DNA from: Candidatus Bathyarchaeia archaeon
GTDB lineage: Archaea; Thermoproteota; Bathyarchaeia; 40CM-2-53-6
NCBI GenBank assembly: GCA_049517415.1
Contig: JBEKSC010000006.1
Coordinates: 33,018 to 97,017, forward strand
Reading direction: 5' to 3'
DNA length: 64,000 nt
Within the stretch, counting starts at the first letter, position 1, and every line of letters starts with the position of its first letter. The position numbers and the translations under genes were made by a program. Positions 22,829 through 64,000 of the stretch are shown piece by piece. The notes under the pieces are model-generated. The model worked only from the letters and a program-made list of their open reading frames with translations. It did not search any database and was not told the origin of the DNA.

Positions 22829-22858
22829 TGGTGGGCCGGGAGAGATTTGAACTCTCGA
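22829..22858 (-). repeat. Isolated tRNA 3' end (T-arm, acceptor strand and CCA); imperfect direct repeat of 23687-23716
   Basis: Minus strand TCGAGAGTTCAAATCTCTCCCGGCCCACCA; no D-arm or anticodon upstream. Confidence 0.85.
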
Positions 22859-22934: not shown

Positions 22935-23708
22935 TTGATTCCGGAAGGAACGAAAATCGATATCATAACAAGAGTCCAGTCAGGTCAGTCGATTCGTCAC
23001 GTTGCACAAGATCTTGGCATTCCACTTTCAACTGCTTACCATCACGGCCGGAGTTTCTGTAATCATCAATCGCGAATCGAGATGAACATGCTGAGGCAAG
23101 GCCAGCTGGGTTACTTGCTAGGGATGTTCGTAGGAGACGGGAGTCTCATTCGGGATAAGCCTCGAGGGGAGTTCCTTGTCAAGATTGCTTTGAACAGGAG
23201 AAGAGATTTGGACATTGTTCAATTCGTTACGCTAATGTTTGAAAAAGCAGGTAAGAAAGTCAACTTTCTAACTGAGCGAGGCATGATCATAATTAGAGTC
23301 TGGTCTAAGATTTTCTATGAATTCATCGAAGATTACGTTAAGCTCGAAAGAAACCATCTATCCCATCATCACACGAAAATTCTCTTGCGCACCCAGCGAT
23401 GGACTCGGGAGTTTGCTCTTGGTTTCATTGGCGGCCTAATAGACAGCGATGGCCATGTCGTTAGCAACTGGAAAGGCGGTCATTACGGTGCGGTAGTGAC
23501 TACGAGTAGTAGTTCTCTCAAACGACAACTCTGCAGTCTATGCGACGCTCTTGGTATCAATGTGACCAGCCATGTACAAGCGCGTGACCCCTTTCAGGGC
23601 AAGTCTCTTTATTCAGTGTATATCCGGTCGCCTGATTTGCATGCATTATGTGGAACACTACTTTCCGTAAAACATTCGAGGTTTCATGGTGGGCCGGGGC
23701 GGATTTGA
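22935..23708 (+). CDS. HTH + double-motif LAGLIDADG endonuclease-like protein
   Basis: N-terminal SIRHVAQDLGIPLSTAY HTH; YLLGMFVGDG and FIGGLIDSDG motifs; last codons overlap the tRNA 3' end in antisense. Confidence 0.85.
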   Translation: MIPEGTKIDIITRVQSGQSIRHVAQDLGIPLSTAYHHGRSFCNHQSRIEMNMLRQGQLGYLLGMFVGDGSLIRDKPRGEFLVKIALNRRRDLDIVQFVTLMFEKAGKKVNFLTERGMIIIRVWSKIFYEFIEDYVKLERNHLSHHHTKILLRTQRWTREFALGFIGGLIDSDGHVVSNWKGGHYGAVVTTSSSSLKRQLCSLCDALGINVTSHVQARDPFQGKSLYSVYIRSPDLHALCGTLLSVKHSRFHGGPGRI

Positions 23709-23781
23709 ACCACCGACCACCTGTTTACAGTTTGTTGTCTCGTGTCAGGCAGGTATCCTAACCAGACTAGACGACCGGCCC
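23687..23781 (-). tRNA. tRNA-Val(GAC) with a 17-nt non-canonical intron at 39/40 (23724-23740); CCA encoded
   Basis: GGGCCGG acceptor; CCTGC-CT-GAC-AC-G|CAGG anticodon arm restored on removing AGACAACAAACTGTAAA; GGTGG-TTCAAAT-CCGCC T-arm; relaxed BHB. Confidence 0.88.
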
Positions 23782-56066: not shown

Positions 56067-57143
56067 ATGGCCTCGCTAACGGAGTCACTCACAGAACAGA
56101 CTCAAACCGACAGACTATTCTTCGTTCTTTCAGGCGAGCACGCATCCCTCCCCGCCGCAGAAGTAAAAGCGATTCTAGAAGCGACTGGCGCAAAATTCTC
56201 CGAACCGACTCTGAGCTACAGGTTACTTACTCTAAACGCTCCATTTAGTGCCTTGAAGGCAGTTTCGGAAAGGAGCCTAATGTACGATTCGTGCGGCCTA
56301 TGCTTGGGAGAATGTGAGGCCGACGAGCGACAAATTGAGGCATTCGTGAAGAATCAGCCGAATGAACGGTTGACCCGTGGGGCTGAGAGTTTTGCGGTTC
56401 GGTCTGTGCGGTTGGGCGGGGCAGCCAAGTCAGTCCGGCGCGTGTCTCTAGAGAGCAGGGTTGGTTCTGTCTTGAAGGAGTCGCTTCCAAGGTTACGTGT
56501 TAACCTTGAGAAGCCTGACCTCATCTTTGCTTGCGTGTTGTATGAGGACAAGTTTTTGCTCGGTCTGTCAAGCTATTCGAAGCCATCTGGCCTGATTGCG
56601 CCTAGGCTGCCCCGTAAGCGTCCCGTATTTCACCCGTCCACGATGCCGCCGAAGATAGCGAGGTGCATGGTCAACTTAGCGCGAGCAGTTCCGGGAACAA
56701 AATTTGCCGACCCATTTTCAGGAGTGGGCGGCATCGCCATTGAGGCTGCTGTGATCGGTTGTAAAGTTCTAGGAATGGATGCAAACCTTCGCATGTTGAG
56801 AGGCGCTCGGAGAAACTTAACCCATTTTGGTTTTGAAGCTGAAGGTTATCTGAATGCTGATGCCCGCCATCTCCCAATGCATGACGTGGATGCCATCGCA
56901 ACTGACCCGCCGTACGGGCGAGGCTCGTCAACCATGGGAACTAAAGTAGCCGCTTTGGTTAAGGAGTTCCTAGAAGGCGTGAAGAGTTCATTGAAAAAAG
57001 ATGCCCACCTCTGCATATCCGCCCCCGTCGAGGTTCAAATTCAAGAATACGCGAGAGAAGCAGGCTTCACGCTCAGGGAGAAACATCTCGCGAAGGTTCA
57101 CCGCAGCCTAACTAGACAATTCGTCGTGTTGCAAAACTCTTAG
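56067..57143 (+). CDS. tRNA (guanine-N2)-methyltransferase Trm11/TrmG10 (THUMP + MTase)
   Basis: LSGEH, RPVFHP, DPFSGVG and TDPPYG motifs. Confidence 0.88.
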   Translation: MASLTESLTEQTQTDRLFFVLSGEHASLPAAEVKAILEATGAKFSEPTLSYRLLTLNAPFSALKAVSERSLMYDSCGLCLGECEADERQIEAFVKNQPNERLTRGAESFAVRSVRLGGAAKSVRRVSLESRVGSVLKESLPRLRVNLEKPDLIFACVLYEDKFLLGLSSYSKPSGLIAPRLPRKRPVFHPSTMPPKIARCMVNLARAVPGTKFADPFSGVGGIAIEAAVIGCKVLGMDANLRMLRGARRNLTHFGFEAEGYLNADARHLPMHDVDAIATDPPYGRGSSTMGTKVAALVKEFLEGVKSSLKKDAHLCISAPVEVQIQEYAREAGFTLREKHLAKVHRSLTRQFVVLQNS

Positions 57144-57144
57144 A

Positions 57145-58077
57145 ATGGCTTCGAAAATGTCAATTTCCGTAACCTTTCTCGGGACGGGAGGAAGCGTCCC
57201 AAGCAAGTATCGAAACCTCCCGAGCGTCCTCCTGCGGAGAGGCCCAGATATAATGCTCTTCGATTGTGGGGAAGGTACGCAACGCCAATTTCTCCAAGCC
57301 AAAGCAGGGACCAACCGAAAGATGCGGATATTCATCAGCCACATGCACGGAGACCACGTATTCGGATTACCTGGATTACTCCACACCCTCTCATTCATGG
57401 GAAGAACAAAAGAGCTGGAGATTGTGGGCCCAAAAGGAATCGCAGACCTTGTCACCTCGGTTAATCGCGTTGTCAAATTGTATTCCCGATTTCCCATTCG
57501 AATCAAGGAGGTACATCATGGTCGCGTTGTCGATGACGAGGAATACGAAGTGCACGCTGCCCCCGCCGAGCACGGCATGCCCTGCTTGGCTTATTCATTC
57601 GTGGAGAAACCACGGGCTGGGAAGTTTGACCCTTCCAAAGCGCTGAAACTGGGCATTCCGGAGGGCCCGATGTGGAAAAAATTACAGGCCTCTGGTTCCG
57701 TGAAGATAGGAAGGAAACTAATTCCATCAAGGCTTGTTGTTGGACCGCAAAGGCCAGGTGTCAAAATAACATACGCTGTTGACACACGACCATGCGCGGC
57801 CGTTCTCAAATTAGCTGCTAGGTCGGACCTTTTGATTCATGACAGCTGCTTCGCGGAAGCAGCTTCTGCGAAAGCAAGAGATTATGGCCACTCGACCGCT
57901 AGCGAAGCCGCTGGTGTTGCGAAGAGGAGTAAGTCCCGGAAATTGGCGCTCTTTCACATTAGCGCCATGTATGAGGATGCCGCACCACTGCTGGCGCAGG
58001 CCAAAAGAATCTTCCGCGAAACAATTCTCTCAAGAGATATGGCTACCGTCTACGTCTCCCCACATACTCTTGGCTGA
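57145..58077 (+). CDS. rnz: Ribonuclease Z
   Basis: FLGTGG, DCGEGTQ, HMHGDH, exosite GIPEGP, and HST motifs. Confidence 0.95.
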   Translation: MASKMSISVTFLGTGGSVPSKYRNLPSVLLRRGPDIMLFDCGEGTQRQFLQAKAGTNRKMRIFISHMHGDHVFGLPGLLHTLSFMGRTKELEIVGPKGIADLVTSVNRVVKLYSRFPIRIKEVHHGRVVDDEEYEVHAAPAEHGMPCLAYSFVEKPRAGKFDPSKALKLGIPEGPMWKKLQASGSVKIGRKLIPSRLVVGPQRPGVKITYAVDTRPCAAVLKLAARSDLLIHDSCFAEAASAKARDYGHSTASEAAGVAKRSKSRKLALFHISAMYEDAAPLLAQAKRIFRETILSRDMATVYVSPHTLG

Positions 58078-58480
58078 GGCCTGGTCCGGGGCTCGCCAAG
58101 AAGTCTATAACCGATTGTGGATCCGACGAGTCTATCTCAATGGAAACTGATCCATTCGGTGATTCCCCGGTGGGTTCACAGAACGAGACTCTTCCCACGA
58201 ACGCGGCCTGCTTGTTTAGGTAGATCCTAATTCGTTGGCCTTTGGTTCGGCTGAAGAGAACTGACCTCGCGGCAGTCCGTATCCTCTCCTGCCTGATCAG
58301 ATTCCGCAAGGTAGAAAGAAAGGCCAAACCGTCCCCTTGAATCTTGAGAACGACCTCGTTCCCTTGCCTGCTGATCTTGTGAATAGGTTCCGATGGAAAC
58401 AGGTTTTGAAGTGCGCGTTCAACTTTGGACTCATCTTCGGTCGGGTTAACTACGGACTCGGCAGTGATCTTTGCGTCCAT
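58043..58480 (-). CDS. DUF54/UPF0201 RNA-binding protein
   Basis: VNPTED..KV..AL.NLFP, IR.AARS and LNKQAA motifs. Confidence 0.88.
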   Translation of the reverse strand: MDAKITAESVVNPTEDESKVERALQNLFPSEPIHKISRQGNEVVLKIQGDGLAFLSTLRNLIRQERIRTAARSVLFSRTKGQRIRIYLNKQAAFVGRVSFCEPTGESPNGSVSIEIDSSDPQSVIDFLASPGPGLSQEYVGRRRR

Positions 58481-59031
58481 TACGTTTTCAACTTATTGAG
58501 AATATCTTTAACCGCCGATTGCAGTTCGGTAATCGTATTTTCATTGACGGCCAGATAATCAGCCAGAGCAATGACCTGTCCTAACCCCACCGTCAGTTCC
58601 CGATTATCACGCTCGGAGAATGTATCCAATGTCTTAGGATCATCGCTCCTTCGCCGGGACAGGAGCCGATTAAAACGCGTCTTGGGTGAAGCGTGAATTG
58701 CTAAGGTCATTACTTCAAACTTCGATTTGAGTTCGGTAAGCTCGGGGAGGCTTCTAATCCCCTCTACGATGACTTCGTTGGACTGGCATTGTTCAATCTT
58801 AGGGAGTAGCCTTTTGGCTACTGCCGCAGGTCCCTCGATTTCTCTAACCTGCAACATAACAGCGCCGATGTTTTGGGGGGTTGGGTCTAGCCCCCTGCGC
58901 TCAGTCTCTTCTCTGATTACGTCGCCCAGAACCAGCACGTCGAACCCAAGTTGCTTCGCCGCTGCTGATGCCACACCCTTTCCAGCGCCCGGCATGCCGG
59001 AAATTGCGATGACTTTCTTTCTTAGCTGCAT
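58480..59031 (-). CDS. UPF0200 P-loop kinase (archaeal dephospho-CoA kinase-like)
   Basis: GMPGAGKG, GDVIRE, EGIRS and RSDD..F.ERD..EL motifs. Confidence 0.85.
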   Translation of the reverse strand: MQLRKKVIAISGMPGAGKGVASAAAKQLGFDVLVLGDVIREETERRGLDPTPQNIGAVMLQVREIEGPAAVAKRLLPKIEQCQSNEVIVEGIRSLPELTELKSKFEVMTLAIHASPKTRFNRLLSRRRSDDPKTLDTFSERDNRELTVGLGQVIALADYLAVNENTITELQSAVKDILNKLKT

Positions 59032-59123
59032 TTGCCGGCAAACGTCTCCGAGGTCTTCCCGCTCAATGGCTATGAACCGTTAAATTAACGTCATTCAATA
59101 TTAGGCTTCGCTGACGGAATCAT

Positions 59124-59696
59124 ATGTCGCAGGAACGCATACGGAGCTTCATTGCAGTTGACCTCGATGAGGCTTCAATACGCGAACGAATAGTGACGGT
59201 TCAGAAGGGTTTGGAACAGACACACGCACAACTGAAAATCGTGGAGCCAGAAATAATGCATCTGACCCTCCGCTTTCTAGGAGAGGTTCCACATACAACG
59301 ATTGGGAAAGTTGAGGAGGCAATGGATTCTGTGCGCTTTCCGCCGTTCGAAGCAGAGTTCACCGGCCTCGGAGTGTTCCCAAACCCAAGGCGAATCAACG
59401 TGGTCTGGGTAGGGATCAAACAAGGGCAAGAACAATTGAACGGTATTTTCCAGCAGCTTGAACCGAGGCTTAGGCAAATTGGCTTGCCACCCGACGACAA
59501 GGGTTTCAGCCCTCACATGACAATTGCCCGCGTCAAATCCGCTATGAACAGAGATGCCTTGGCGCAATATGTTGAGGGTAAGCGTAACGAAGAGTTCGGG
59601 AAGATGGCGGTAAAAGCTGTGCGATTAAAGAAGAGTACGTTGACCCCTAGAGGGCCGATATACACAACAATCCATGAAGTATCGGCTTCGCCCTAA
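59124..59696 (+). CDS. thpR: RNA 2',3'-cyclic phosphodiesterase (2H family)
   Basis: HLTLRFLGE and PHMTIAR (two HxT motifs). Confidence 0.93.
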   Translation: MSQERIRSFIAVDLDEASIRERIVTVQKGLEQTHAQLKIVEPEIMHLTLRFLGEVPHTTIGKVEEAMDSVRFPPFEAEFTGLGVFPNPRRINVVWVGIKQGQEQLNGIFQQLEPRLRQIGLPPDDKGFSPHMTIARVKSAMNRDALAQYVEGKRNEEFGKMAVKAVRLKKSTLTPRGPIYTTIHEVSASP

Positions 59697-59713
59697 CGGA
59701 CCAAGTGTAGGTC

Positions 59714-61144
59714 TTGGACAAGTTCGGAAAGGTTTGTGATGCCGTTAAGAATAAGATTTCTCCTTCACTCAAATTGAAAGACGCGGTTGAGACAAAGGCC
59801 GAGGAGATTAGGCGGGCTGTCGAGCGAGAGTGCGTCAAGGCGAATCTCGAAGCTGAAGTCCGCGTGGACGGCTCCGTCGCGAAGGACACTTGGATACGGG
59901 ATTATGCTGACGTCGACATTTTCATGAGAGTTAGCCCACAGTTAACCAAGACGCAACTTCGAGACGTGTGCTTGCCAATCGCACGCAAGGCACTTCTTCC
60001 TCACACAATCGTTGAGAGGTATGCGGAGCACCCGTACGTAGAGTCAGTAGTAGAATTGGGAAAGGAGGGTGAGCTACGTGTCAACGTTGTCCCATCCTAC
60101 AAAGTCGAGAAAGGCAAGTGGCTAAGCGCCACAGACAGGAGCCCCTACCACACCGAGTACATTCGTCAACACCTCTCTAAGGAGCAGCACGACGAAGTTC
60201 GCTTGCTGAAGGCCTTCATGAGGGGGATAGGGAGCTATGGAGCAGACATCAAAACTGGCGGCTTCAGCGGCATGCTCTGCGAGACGCTCATAGCTTCGCG
60301 CAGAGATTTCAGGCGTGTTGTTCAAGATTTCAGGGTGTGGCACGAGGACGAAGTCATTGACATTGAGAACTATTACGAGGGGAGGCGTGAAGAAGCACGC
60401 CGCATTTTCCGAGAACCATTGATCGTCATCGATCCAGTGGACAAAGGCCGCAATTTAGCCGCCGCGGTCCGAGAGAACCAGCTCTCCAATTTTGTTGCCG
60501 CATGCAGGAAGCTGACCTGGAAACCCTCAACTGCTCTCTTCTCTCAACCAAAAGTCAAGGCGTTGACGCCCGATAATTACCGAAAACTCATTCGAGCTCG
60601 TGGGTCGACGATCATCTGCCTAGTCGTGGGAAGAATAGATGCAGTTGTCGACATTTTGTGGAGCCAACTGTACCGCACGCAGAGAGCCCTCGTCAACCTT
60701 CTGGAGAACAACGACTTCAAAGTCGTCCGATCATGGGCTTGGAGTGATGAAAAATCATTGAACATAATTCTATTCGAACTGGAGCAAGGATTGTTGCCTC
60801 GCCCAAGACGCCACGATGGCCCTCCAGTTTACAGGTTTGAAGAAAGCACTTCGTTTCTATCAAAACACGTGCCGAACCCAAGTACTATCTCCGGCCCTTG
60901 GATTGAGAATGGACATTGGGTTGTAGAAAAAAGGAGGCCAGTTGTTTCCGCAAATGCCTTGCTCAAATCAGTCCTTCGTTCTGGGGGAGAAGACGTGGGC
61001 GTTGCTTCTCTGCTTGCCGAGTCCCTTAGGAAGAAGTTACAAATTCTTGAAAATGAAAGGATTGGAAGACTGATCGCCTCGAATGCGGAGTTTGCCAAGG
61101 CTATGAGAACTTACCTTTCAGGAAGGCCAGCTTGGTTTGCATGA
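59714..61144 (+). CDS. cca: Archaeal class I CCA-adding enzyme
   Basis: GSVAKDTW..DVDIF, YAEHPYV, DRSPYHT and DPVD..RN motifs. Confidence 0.95.
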   Translation: MDKFGKVCDAVKNKISPSLKLKDAVETKAEEIRRAVERECVKANLEAEVRVDGSVAKDTWIRDYADVDIFMRVSPQLTKTQLRDVCLPIARKALLPHTIVERYAEHPYVESVVELGKEGELRVNVVPSYKVEKGKWLSATDRSPYHTEYIRQHLSKEQHDEVRLLKAFMRGIGSYGADIKTGGFSGMLCETLIASRRDFRRVVQDFRVWHEDEVIDIENYYEGRREEARRIFREPLIVIDPVDKGRNLAAAVRENQLSNFVAACRKLTWKPSTALFSQPKVKALTPDNYRKLIRARGSTIICLVVGRIDAVVDILWSQLYRTQRALVNLLENNDFKVVRSWAWSDEKSLNIILFELEQGLLPRPRRHDGPPVYRFEESTSFLSKHVPNPSTISGPWIENGHWVVEKRRPVVSANALLKSVLRSGGEDVGVASLLAESLRKKLQILENERIGRLIASNAEFAKAMRTYLSGRPAWFA

Positions 61145-61895
61145 AGACGAAATACTCCTCGATGGGCTTCTGCGGTCCCGTTACTCACAGATACTCACCT
61201 ATCCTGGTACGGATCTCAATGAAGCGAAGGCAAGGATAAACCAGCTCTCAGAGATTGGTGTTTCCGCTCTTCGTTTCCGAGGAGTCACCCAAATAGCTGG
61301 TATTCCTGTTCTTGGGAAAGGTTGCGTTGGCGTGGTGACGCAGGCTCGTCTTGAAGGGGAAATTGTTGCCTTGAAGATCCGGCGTCTAGACGCCGACCGG
61401 CCGTCGATGAACGACGAGGCTAGGTTGTTGCGATTGGCGAATAGCGTTGACGTTGGGCCGCGTTTGATTTCTGCAACAAAGAATTTTCTCGCAATGGAAC
61501 TTTTCCGAGGCATTCCACTCTTCCGATGGGCAGAGCGCTCAAAGGGGGGCAGAAGAGTGGTGAGGGAACTGGTCACACGCCTCCTTACATGTTGCTTCAT
61601 GCTTGACTCGATTGGGCTTGACCACGGGGAGTTGAGCCACGCACCCAGGAATGTTCTAGTTAATAGATTTGGCCAACCCTGCATTGTTGATTTCGAGAGC
61701 GCCAGCACGGCAAGGCGTGTCGCAAACGTCACATCGCTACTTCAATACTTCCTATTTGGAAGAGTATCGAAGACGCTTCACGCCTCACAAATCTTCCCTG
61801 ACAGAAGGAACATCGTGAAGGCCTTAAGCGAATACAAGCACAATGGTTCGGTTGAAAATTTCCAGGGGGTCCTGGGCGCGCTTGGCTTGTTATGA
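61137..61895 (+). CDS. RIO/Bud32-like Ser/Thr kinase
   Basis: LGKG..GVV, ALKIRR, HGELS..NV and IVDFE motifs. Confidence 0.85.
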   Translation: MHEDEILLDGLLRSRYSQILTYPGTDLNEAKARINQLSEIGVSALRFRGVTQIAGIPVLGKGCVGVVTQARLEGEIVALKIRRLDADRPSMNDEARLLRLANSVDVGPRLISATKNFLAMELFRGIPLFRWAERSKGGRRVVRELVTRLLTCCFMLDSIGLDHGELSHAPRNVLVNRFGQPCIVDFESASTARRVANVTSLLQYFLFGRVSKTLHASQIFPDRRNIVKALSEYKHNGSVENFQGVLGALGLL

Positions 61896-61934
61896 AAGGT
61901 TCTTATGAGCGCGCATTTCTTTTCTGGCCCGAAC

Positions 61935-62114
61935 GGGGCCGTCGTCTAGAAGAGATTGCTCGTCAACTCTCTGGACAGCTTGGTCTGGGAACACGATTCC
62001 GCCAACAGGATACCAGAGCGCAGTCGCGCGCGGTGAACCTGGGGCGCTGGCGTCCCTAAGAAAGAAAGGTCTCAGGGCCAGAGGTCGTGGGTTCAAATCC
62101 CACCGGCCCCACCA
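61935..62114 (+). tRNA. tRNA-Pro(GGG) with four BHB introns (61950-61978, 61987-62006, 62017-62037, 62053-62083); CCA encoded
   Basis: Joined exons give a 79-nt cloverleaf GGGGCCGTCGTCTAG|CTTGGTCT|AGGATACCAG|CCTGGGGCGCTGGCG|GTCGTGGGTTCAAATCCCACCGGCCCCACCA. Confidence 0.9.
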
Positions 62115-62226
62115 TTGTTGTTCAGCGAATTTACTGACGCGCGCATACATTCCCCGGGATGCCATAGAAGTAACAGGGTTGCAAAAGTATAAAGATTCAT
62201 GATCGCAAACCGGGAGTTGAATTGGT

Positions 62227-63171
62227 ATGTTCCTCTCAGAAGTTGAGAAAGTCGAATTTACGAGCATTGTGGATAACACAGTTGACATTCTCTTACCGAG
62301 TTCGGAAATTGCGGTAAGGCCTAGGCTATCTCTTGGCTGGCATGCCAAACCGCAGTTAATCGCTGAACATGGTTTCTCCACCTTGGTGGTTGTGGAAGTC
62401 GGAGGAAAAACGAGAACAATTCTCTTCGACACCGGCCTGGATCCTATGACCGCGGTTCATAATGCAGAGGCCTTGGGAATCGATCTGTCAGCTTGTGAGG
62501 GGCTTGTTCTGAGCCACGGACACAACGATCACGCGGCAGGTCTTCTAAACATGAAAAGAAAACTCGGTAGCCGGAAGCTTCCGCTCATGCTGCATTCTCA
62601 TGCGTTCAGAAAGAGAATGGTGGTCTTGAATGATGGCAGTACTTGGGACTTGCCCCCTCCGGAAAGGACGACGGTTGAGGCGGCTGGCTATCAAATCGTG
62701 GAGAAGAATGATTCGTCATTTCTTCTTGATGGAGCGGCTCTCCTTTCGGGTCAAATTGAGAGGACAACCGATTTCGAGAAAGGCTTGCCCGTGCACTACG
62801 CGGAGGTCGAGGGAAAGCTGGAGAAGGATCCTCTAATCCTCGACGATCAAGCTCTTATCATGAATCTGAAAGGTAAAGGGCTCATCGTTCTTACAGGGTG
62901 CGGCCATGCAGGCTTAATCAACACGATACATCATGCTCAAGCAGTCACAGGGATCAGTGAAGTCTTCGCAGTTATGGGAGGTATGCATCTTACAGGAGGT
63001 CTCTTCGAGCCGATAATTCCGAGAACCATATCAGAGCTAAAGAGCATTAATCCATCCGTAGCTATACCCTGCCATTGTACTGGTTGGAAAGCCGTCCATG
63101 AAGTAGCACGCCATCTTCCTGATGCATTCATACAGAACAGTGTTGGGACGAAGTACGTATTCTCCGCGTAA
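62227..63171 (+). CDS. MBL-fold metallo-hydrolase
   Basis: AEHGFS, FDTG, SHGHNDH, GCGHAG, GGMHL and PCHCTG motifs. Confidence 0.9.
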   Translation: MFLSEVEKVEFTSIVDNTVDILLPSSEIAVRPRLSLGWHAKPQLIAEHGFSTLVVVEVGGKTRTILFDTGLDPMTAVHNAEALGIDLSACEGLVLSHGHNDHAAGLLNMKRKLGSRKLPLMLHSHAFRKRMVVLNDGSTWDLPPPERTTVEAAGYQIVEKNDSSFLLDGAALLSGQIERTTDFEKGLPVHYAEVEGKLEKDPLILDDQALIMNLKGKGLIVLTGCGHAGLINTIHHAQAVTGISEVFAVMGGMHLTGGLFEPIIPRTISELKSINPSVAIPCHCTGWKAVHEVARHLPDAFIQNSVGTKYVFSA

Positions 63172-63225
63172 TCTATGACCTGCTGACTAACATCAAATCG
63201 ATTTCCTATGAAGTACGGGGGCTGA

Positions 63226-63555
63226 TTACTCGGCACTTGTCAGGTTTCCTTCTTTGGTGCCGTATTTTTGTTTGAAGTTGTGTATCGCTAGGCGGATTAG
63301 GTCGGTTCTGTGTACGCCGTAGGTCTTTGCGTACTCGTTTAACTTGCCTACATTATCAGGGCTCATGGCGAGGTTGATTTTTCGTTTCTTGCACATCTGG
63401 CAATCCCGTTCTTTAGGTGAGTGGAGGAATTCGTCTATTGCAATGTTCACGAGGCTGCTACGGGGCAACCCATACACTCTAACGAGGCTGTCCAATTCTT
63501 CCAAATCATGCTCACAGAAACGCAAAATAACGCTCACCCGACGCCGCCCACCCAT
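63226..63555 (-). CDS. Tandem ribbon-helix-helix domain protein
   Basis: Two RHH units: VILRF..LD.L....RSSLVNIAIDEFL and INLAM..LNEYA...RTDLIRLAIHNF. Confidence 0.75.
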   Translation of the reverse strand: MGGRRRVSVILRFCEHDLEELDSLVRVYGLPRSSLVNIAIDEFLHSPKERDCQMCKKRKINLAMSPDNVGKLNEYAKTYGVHRTDLIRLAIHNFKQKYGTKEGNLTSAE

Positions 63556-63886
63556 ACCAAGCCCAGCCTTCTAGGCCTATGCTTCGCCAAGTGTATGAAC
63601 ACCCAAGAGGTCCCGCTGGTCCAGCAGAGTGTGTTGTGAAAAAGGCTTCAAGGTAGCGGGACACACGGAAAACCGTGAGCACAAAACTACCGACCCCCCC
63701 ACCACCCGTGACCCAAGCGGGCGCGCAAAAATGCGTCAATTTGGTGGGGCCGAAGCGACTCACCGCGGTTACGAAAAGGGTCCTCCGGTTCCATAGGAGC
63801 TTGGGACGAGTAACATTTTGTGTCCACAATACTACAACCATTTTTGGAACGAAGGTGCCTACTGCCTGAGGGCTTGAACACTGAAA

Positions 63887-64000
63887 TTACACGATTTTCA
63901 GCATGAGGCTACCCTTCGTCGAGGTTCCCCATTTGGGTAGGCCTCTTCCCTGCAAGACGAATATTGTGCCCTTACGTGTTCTAGGTGGGATGCGAAGAAG
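63887..64000 (-). CDS. 3' end of a DnaJ C-terminal domain protein (truncated by the window edge)
   Basis: LLRIPPRTRKGTIFVLQGRGLPKWGTSTKGSLMLKIV* matches the IPPGT..G..F.L.G.G.P....G.L DnaJ_C pattern. Confidence 0.7.
   Translation of the reverse strand, partial: LLRIPPRTRKGTIFVLQGRGLPKWGTSTKGSLMLKIV

Follow-up and report, generated by a model that had tools for sequence, protein, structure and literature searches.

The locus studied here raised the question of whether a tRNA gene interrupted four times can be a working gene, and whether such fragmentation is exceptional for its host. The window (the whole 64,000-nt stretch of DNA analysed, to which all coordinates refer unless a host contig is named) lies on contig C6 of a 2.65-Mb assembly of 59 contigs, 100% complete and 6.86% contaminated. 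The gene was located at positions 61935-62114 of the + strand. An earlier reading, made from the letters alone, had proposed a four-intron layout yielding a 79-nt cloverleaf, and the coordinates, lengths and motifs were found to be as claimed: removal of the four introns (29, 20, 21, and 31 nt) gave a 79-nt tRNA-Pro(GGG) with an encoded CCA, which was scored at 116.9 by ARAGORN. The gene and the element in front of it are composed as follows.

61894..61907, + strand: probable archaeal promoter, a BRE-like stretch of purines and then a TATA-like box, of putative function
61935-61949, + strand: exon 1, 15 nt, tRNA positions 1-15, with positions 10-13 supplying the 5' strand for the first central helix; unchanged in all 18 genes of the genus
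61950-61978, + strand: intron 15/16, 29 nt, HBh' motif; missing from 32 of 52 orthologous genes
61979-61986, + strand: exon 2, 8 nt, tRNA positions 16-20b
61987-62006, + strand: intron 20b/21, 20 nt, hBHBh' motif with a 2-bp outer helix; present in 52 of 52 orthologous genes
62007-62016, + strand: exon 3, 10 nt, tRNA positions 21-30
62017-62037, + strand: intron 30/31, 21 nt, HBh' motif; found in all 52 orthologous genes
62038-62052, + strand: exon 4, 15 nt, tRNA positions 31-45, with the GGG anticodon
62053-62083, + strand: intron 45/46, 31 nt, HBh' motif; found in 50 of the 52 orthologous genes
62084-62114, + strand: exon 5, 31 nt, tRNA positions 46-76, comprising the T arm, the 3' strand of the acceptor stem, discriminator A73 and the encoded CCA

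A clean cloverleaf was obtained only when all four introns were taken out. Among the 16 possible combinations of kept and removed introns, the fully spliced form obtained the best ARAGORN result; 10 combinations, the unspliced gene among them, did not give any call, four gave a wrong isotype (100.8-102.8), and one gave Pro at 104.1 with the remaining intron skipped. The expectation that standard annotation would miss the gene was borne out, since neither an ARAGORN call nor an Rfam match was obtained for the raw sequence of the locus. In the window as a whole, ARAGORN and Rfam found one tRNA gene, for which the ARAGORN isotype was wrong: the stretch at 23687-23781 (- strand), called tRNA-Ser(UGA), is actually a tRNA-Val(GAC) with a 17-nt relaxed intron at 39/40.

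All four introns occupy non-canonical positions, none of them being located at the canonical 37/38. The central helix, formed by the upstream exon with the 3' end of the intron, was complete (four of four pairs) at each junction, the intron stems comprised 5, 4, 4, and 4 pairs (for 15/16, 20b/21, 30/31, and 45/46, respectively), and the splice sites were located in 3-nt bulges, of the kind that EndA is known to cut after the second base. The exon-side outer helix had 0, 2, 0, and 1 pairs in the same order, and three junctions were therefore classified as HBh' and only 20b/21 as hBHBh'. The 15/16 and 45/46 junctions are fixed at the predicted register by orthologues without the respective intron. 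The central helices of these two introns are built with strands that belong, in the mature tRNA, to the D and anticodon stems, so that the precursor must fold unlike the product; the helix strand of the 45/46 intron copies tRNA positions 27-30 and therefore competes with the mature anticodon stem.

The splice motifs of the tRNA-Pro(GGG) gene are far above chance. When the intron letters were shuffled, the full central helix with a 2-bp flank occurred at frequencies of 0.004, 0.066, 0.002, and 0.002 for the individual introns, and motifs at all four junctions together appeared in none of 20,000 shuffles; a multi-intron finder scored the locus at 91.8, in contrast with values of at most 46.7 in 60 shuffles in which the last exon was kept. 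Other arrangements were considered and discarded. Nested or dependent introns were excluded, as the unspliced sequence already contains the four motifs without overlap; a split or permuted tRNA gene was excluded, as the five exons are colinear within 180 nt of one strand; and self-splicing group I or II introns were ruled out by the size of the introns (20-31 nt) and by the lack of an Rfam match at the locus.

The promoter-like motif overlaps the stop codon of the upstream kinase gene and was seen, by eye, in front of all 18 genes of the genus at an unchanged distance, with variable intervening DNA. The upstream region (56067-61895) is a tRNA-processing cluster with genes for a Trm11-like methyltransferase, RNase Z, a 2',3'-cyclic phosphodiesterase and a CCA-adding enzyme, in addition to the kinase-like gene. 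Linkage to the kinase is kept in the genus and in some genomes of the groups g15 and f9, and is absent from g2/g3. The downstream DNA (62115-64000) is different in each relative, and the end of the contig is reached 1.9 kb further on, as expected of an insertion hot spot.

Full-length matches to the gene were obtained in 17 of the 22 other genomes of the genus, all of them with the same four introns; the five genomes for which no full match was found are 67-93% complete. Across the 18 genes of the genus, including the present one, 99.1% of 810 precursor-structure cells were paired (these genes being kin and not independent), with changes on both sides of a pair in 13 cells; none of 500 shuffles came as high, and controls with slid partners gave 32-47%. 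Three stem pairs of the 45/46 intron changed on both sides within the genus. The wider comparison comprised 52 full Pro(GGG) genes resolved from 50 genomes of three families, after leaving out two hits cut by contig ends and one chance match. Exons were nearly invariant and motif pairs were kept in the orthologous genes of the three families, the central helices displaying a few single mismatches. Considering the 37 distinct genes, intron stems swapped pair type yet remained paired; for one position of the 20b/21 stem, the pair was A-U in 19 genes, G-C in 10, and C-G in 8.

The number of introns per gene varied within this set, with 2, 3, 4, and 5 introns in 1, 28, 22, and 1 of the 52 orthologous genes, respectively. 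The 15/16 intron appeared in 20 of the 52 (all 18 of the genus and two of three in family f9), an intron at 7/8 in four, and one at 13/14 in a single gene. The five-intron tRNA-Pro(GGG) belongs to relative G059 (locus L132, contig C3, about 165484-165727, - strand) and carries introns at 7/8, 13/14 (64 nt), 20b/21, 30/31, and 45/46, with a second exon of 6 nt; its spliced form was scored at 112.4 by ARAGORN and its raw form gave no call. When the introns of family f9 were compared with those of the genus, the similarity at 15/16 was matched by shuffles (176 and 86 of 500 as high), and the 45/46 introns were closer than shuffles (0-3 of 300 as high). This comparison of sequences favours two gains at 15/16, where the introns of the two groups appear unrelated. 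In seven other families of the order no Pro(GGG) match to the search patterns was obtained, and no intron-less version was seen. The distribution indicates that 20b/21 and 30/31, usually together with 45/46, would form an old core, and that the introns at 7/8, 13/14, and 15/16 probably come and go by lineage. A simple ladder of stepwise gains (2, 3, and 4 introns by rank) was rejected as too simple because four-intron genes occur in another family and introns at 7/8 and 13/14 occur in sister genera. In sister genera (loci L126, L128, and L130), the last exon of tRNA-Trp(CCA) is that of tRNA-Pro(GGG), and tRNA-Trp(CCA) likewise has an intron at 45/46.

The tRNA genes of the host genome were counted with a finder that follows a tRNA profile and is able to skip BHB-like introns, the tRNAs of relatives being used as templates. 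This census yielded 46 tRNA genes with 44 anticodons (CAU three times) and 109 introns, or 2.37 per gene, values that are to be read with a profile trained on this genome, several relaxed junctions, some approximate positions, and long introns counted once. Zero, one, two, three, four, and five introns were found in 1, 9, 17, 11, 7, and 1 genes, respectively; 45 of the 46 genes were interrupted and all were colinear. ARAGORN scored 40 spliced genes at 115-127 and four hand-parsed ones at 117-125, this check covering the genes other than the final Asp and Tyr parses. Apart from Pro(GGG), four introns were present in Glu(CUC), Lys(UUU), Leu(CAG), initiator Met, Pro(CGG), and Tyr, and five in tRNA-Trp(CCA) (host C24:5192-5420, - strand; introns at 10/11, 28/29, 37/38, 45/46, and 59/60; 120.2 by ARAGORN when spliced). 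With seven other host genes carrying four or five introns, the description of the locus as an unusually fragmented gene, made in the sequence-only reading, did not hold. That reading had also asked whether the genome has another Pro(GGG) gene, and none was found among the 46. Pro(UGG) might read CCC and CCU by wobble, so the Pro(GGG) gene need not be essential.

Two further stretches deserve mention. The sole Arg(CCU) gene, as parsed (host C2:49679-49827, - strand), carries C at position 33, where U is usual, and its motif at 37/38 is weak. A 47th tRNA-like stretch (L151, host C57:1617-1716, - strand), with a T arm and a CCA end, was found on a 3-kb contig; it fits no standard anticodon and may be contamination. 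Its reading as a pyrrolysine tRNA was discarded, as no PylS over the cut-off was found in the genome and no Rfam family matched.

The splicing machinery expected for such genes was present in the genome. Two PF01974 genes encode two paralogous EndA subunits. The alpha subunit matches chain 3p1z_B (E 7.5e-39): its residues Y127, H135, K166, R159, and W187 align with Y125, H133, K164, R157, and W183, and its loop residues K43/K45 with K44/R46 (numbering of PMC3241643). The catalytic triad and the K44/R46 loop are described for the Aeropyrum enzyme in PMC3241643. The second paralogue is without the motifs of the triad region and looks non-catalytic. All 15 EndA relatives found were records titled Candidatus Bathyarchaeia or Bathyarchaeota, with 61-93% identity. 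The host enzyme is thus predicted to be of the (alpha-beta)2 type with the crenarchaeal-specific, broad-specificity loop, which agrees with the broad-specificity EndA that had been anticipated for this gene. RtcB is also encoded in the genome.

All these factors taken together make it very probable that the locus is a functional tRNA-Pro(GGG) gene, with four passenger introns removed by EndA, in an intron-rich lineage of Bathyarchaeia. The gene would be transcribed from the promoter just upstream as one precursor of about 190 nt, in which, to judge from the sequence and its conservation, each intron, none of the four being nested, pairs with the end of the preceding exon to form a bulge-helix-bulge motif. 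The (alpha-beta)2 EndA would then cut each bulge after its second base, eight cuts in total, and RtcB would join the exons in four ligations, followed by end trimming, as in established biochemistry. The introns are probably tolerated passengers that pile up because EndA removes introns from any position, the gene being one of eight with at least four introns in a lineage with an average of about 2.4 per gene.

The alternatives of a pseudogene and of a parsing or assembly artefact appear very improbable. The contamination of the assembly (6.86%) and the single metatranscriptome examined, which was without spliced product, would fit an artefact; this metatranscriptome gave 10 contigs, none at ≥95%, two of which cover intron-bearing stretches in unspliced form, without splice joints; they perhaps represent DNA or precursor from relatives and thus weigh neither for nor against splicing. 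Against decay stand the near-invariant exons and the preservation of motif pairs across three families (52 genes from 50 genomes), along with the conserved promoter-like motif, the lack of any other Pro(GGG) gene among those found, and the shuffle controls. A different proposal concerns the order of events, since the earlier reading had suggested that ordered splicing might be needed. A fixed order, in which 45/46 and 20b/21 are cut first, while upstream introns still block the mature anticodon and D stems, seems unlikely. Positions 10-13 and 40-43 do serve both mature stems and central helices, and a preferred order among independently folding introns is shown for Cyanidioschyzon merolae in the accessible part of PMC3728597. 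Nearest-neighbour folding with flanks at 15 C gave low motif probabilities (0.19 for 20b/21 and 0.30 for 45/46), and the modelled probability of the helix fell from 0.30 to 0.00 for 45/46, and from 0.19 to 0.00 for 20b/21, when either was the last remaining intron. However, the model was equally low for single-intron genes (0.00-0.12 in the five tested), which yet must be spliced, and the values for 45/46 swung with the flanks chosen (0.02, 0.30, and 0.97); with controls failing and results depending on flanks, the derivation of a splicing order from folding energies was rejected. Moreover, 32 orthologues splice 20b/21 without any 15/16 intron, and there is no steric need for an order, the inner exons measuring 8, 10, and 15 nt against the 7 nt needed for two motifs. 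Every inner exon therefore accommodates two motifs at once, and as all four motifs fit simultaneously and none is nested, no obligatory order is called for.

Where the introns came from was addressed by comparison within the genome. No near-identical sister of the four was found among the other 105 introns, and the best match among these was equalled by 103, 4, 67, and 9 of 200 shuffles (uncorrected). Selection might have kept the introns as a means of concealing the tRNA gene from viruses and integrative elements, for which tRNA genes serve as attachment sites, a defence hypothesis published by Randau and Soll, as summarised in the available part of PMC4090602. We consider this improbable here, though less so than decay or artefact is. 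The genome holds tyrosine integrases and 13 orphan tRNA-end matches, and the three orphans closest to Pro(GGG) contain the last exon only, with at most two intron bases. Nevertheless, the 31-nt last exon is intact and is itself the duplicated part, so the gene still looks targeted; the orphan Leu(CAG) and Leu(UAG) copies carry intron sequence and are located about 0.5 kb or less from integrase genes; and an intron at 15/16 or 7/8 is remote from any attachment site of this kind. Defence against integration is at best weakly supported, and tolerated accumulation under a permissive enzyme is the favoured reading.

The orphan tRNA ends were observed at several places in the host genome. Copies of exon 5 occur at C35:4186-4215 (- strand, 100%), C34:17342-17370 (- strand, 100%), and C9:14329-14354 (+ strand, 92%), with more decayed ones on C9, C14, C16, and C2; several have a common short motif in front of them, which was seen in genome G007 too. 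No integrase was found beside the exact copies on C34 and C35, either in the listed ORFs or by family search. A partial copy of Leu(UAG) (C16:41984-42105, - strand) keeps the whole 59/60 intron, and one of Leu(CAG) (C2:122837-122896, - strand) keeps intron sequence; both adjoin a tyrosine integrase gene. Within the window, positions 22829-22858 (- strand) contain a 30-nt tRNA 3' end, orphan and slightly decayed, that has CCA but no 5' part and looks like a remnant attachment site.

In the portions of three reviews that were available (PMC8450103, PMC4390854, and PMC4033280), three is stated as the archaeal maximum of introns per tRNA gene, as the sequence-only reading had stated, with the pre-tRNA-Glu(UUC) of Pyrobaculum calidifontis and the pre-tRNA-Pro(UGG) of P. 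islandicum as three-intron genes and a record genome of 71 introns in 46 genes (1.54 per gene). According to these sources, the Thermoproteales resemble the host in having several cis BHB introns at non-canonical positions and an (alpha-beta)2 EndA with the crenarchaeal-specific loop. They differ in the maximum of three introns per gene vs. four here, in the load (1.54 vs. 2.37 introns per gene), in the absence of nesting from the host gene as set against the three-intron genes of Thermoproteales, and in the transposed intron families described for them, in contrast with the four introns of this gene, which have no clear sister copies. The nuclear tRNAs of C. merolae likewise carry non-nested introns, each folding its own BHB motif (PMC3728597, in the part consulted). 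There, expression and intermediates are shown; C. merolae is a eukaryote with at most three introns per gene and many permuted genes, in contrast with the 46 colinear genes of the host.

The closest parallel is found in Asgard archaea, for which 228 introns in three genomes are given in the accessible text of PMC11291895 (2024), and up to five intervening sequences per gene, with an average of 2.2, for families in that of Goswami et al. 2026 (bioRxiv 10.64898/2026.10.13.758758). As far as these two sources extend, the introns are likewise short and of BHB type, located at many non-canonical sites and missed by standard annotation, and an (alpha-beta)2-type EndA and repeated gains are comparable features. 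Between 92 and 98% of Asgard genes are interrupted, with 2.0-2.4 introns per gene and a maximum of five, as compared to 45 of 46 genes, 2.37, and five in the host; the five of the preprint are intervening sequences counted from an alignment and not shown to be spliced. The host belongs to a different lineage, Bathyarchaeia, which is absent from the main text of the preprint (10.64898/2026.10.13.758758) in the part available. Beyond this preprint, the literature searched gave nothing on archaeal tRNA genes with four or five introns. A search for literature on tRNA introns of Bathyarchaeia found none, subscription journals being mostly outside the search and supplements being places where such genes may be listed.

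The novelty that had been attached to the count of four introns did not survive these comparisons, as relatives commonly have four, one relative has five in the same gene, and Asgard genes have up to five. Four introns do not set a record and are commonplace in this lineage, and the mechanism is the known one. The remaining interest lies in the intron load of the whole lineage, apparently unpublished for Bathyarchaeia, and in the series of two to five introns within one gene. We see an even chance that this clade is a third, unpublished and independent hot spot of tRNA introns, as heavily loaded as the richest Asgard families, in which Pro(GGG) is still gaining introns, an old core of 20b/21, 30/31, and 45/46 having been extended at 7/8, 13/14, and 15/16 by branch, with 15/16 gained twice. 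If this is true, the dense recent gains in one gene would make the way in which tRNA introns arrive directly testable. The results show that the textbook limit of three is also exceeded as a matter of routine outside Asgard archaea, in an uncultured class that is abundant. Because common annotation misses such genes, genome-quality and codon studies in Bathyarchaeia are likely to work with tRNA counts that are too low. The series of 52 genes with two to five introns lends itself to tests of intron gain and of the range of substrates accepted by EndA.
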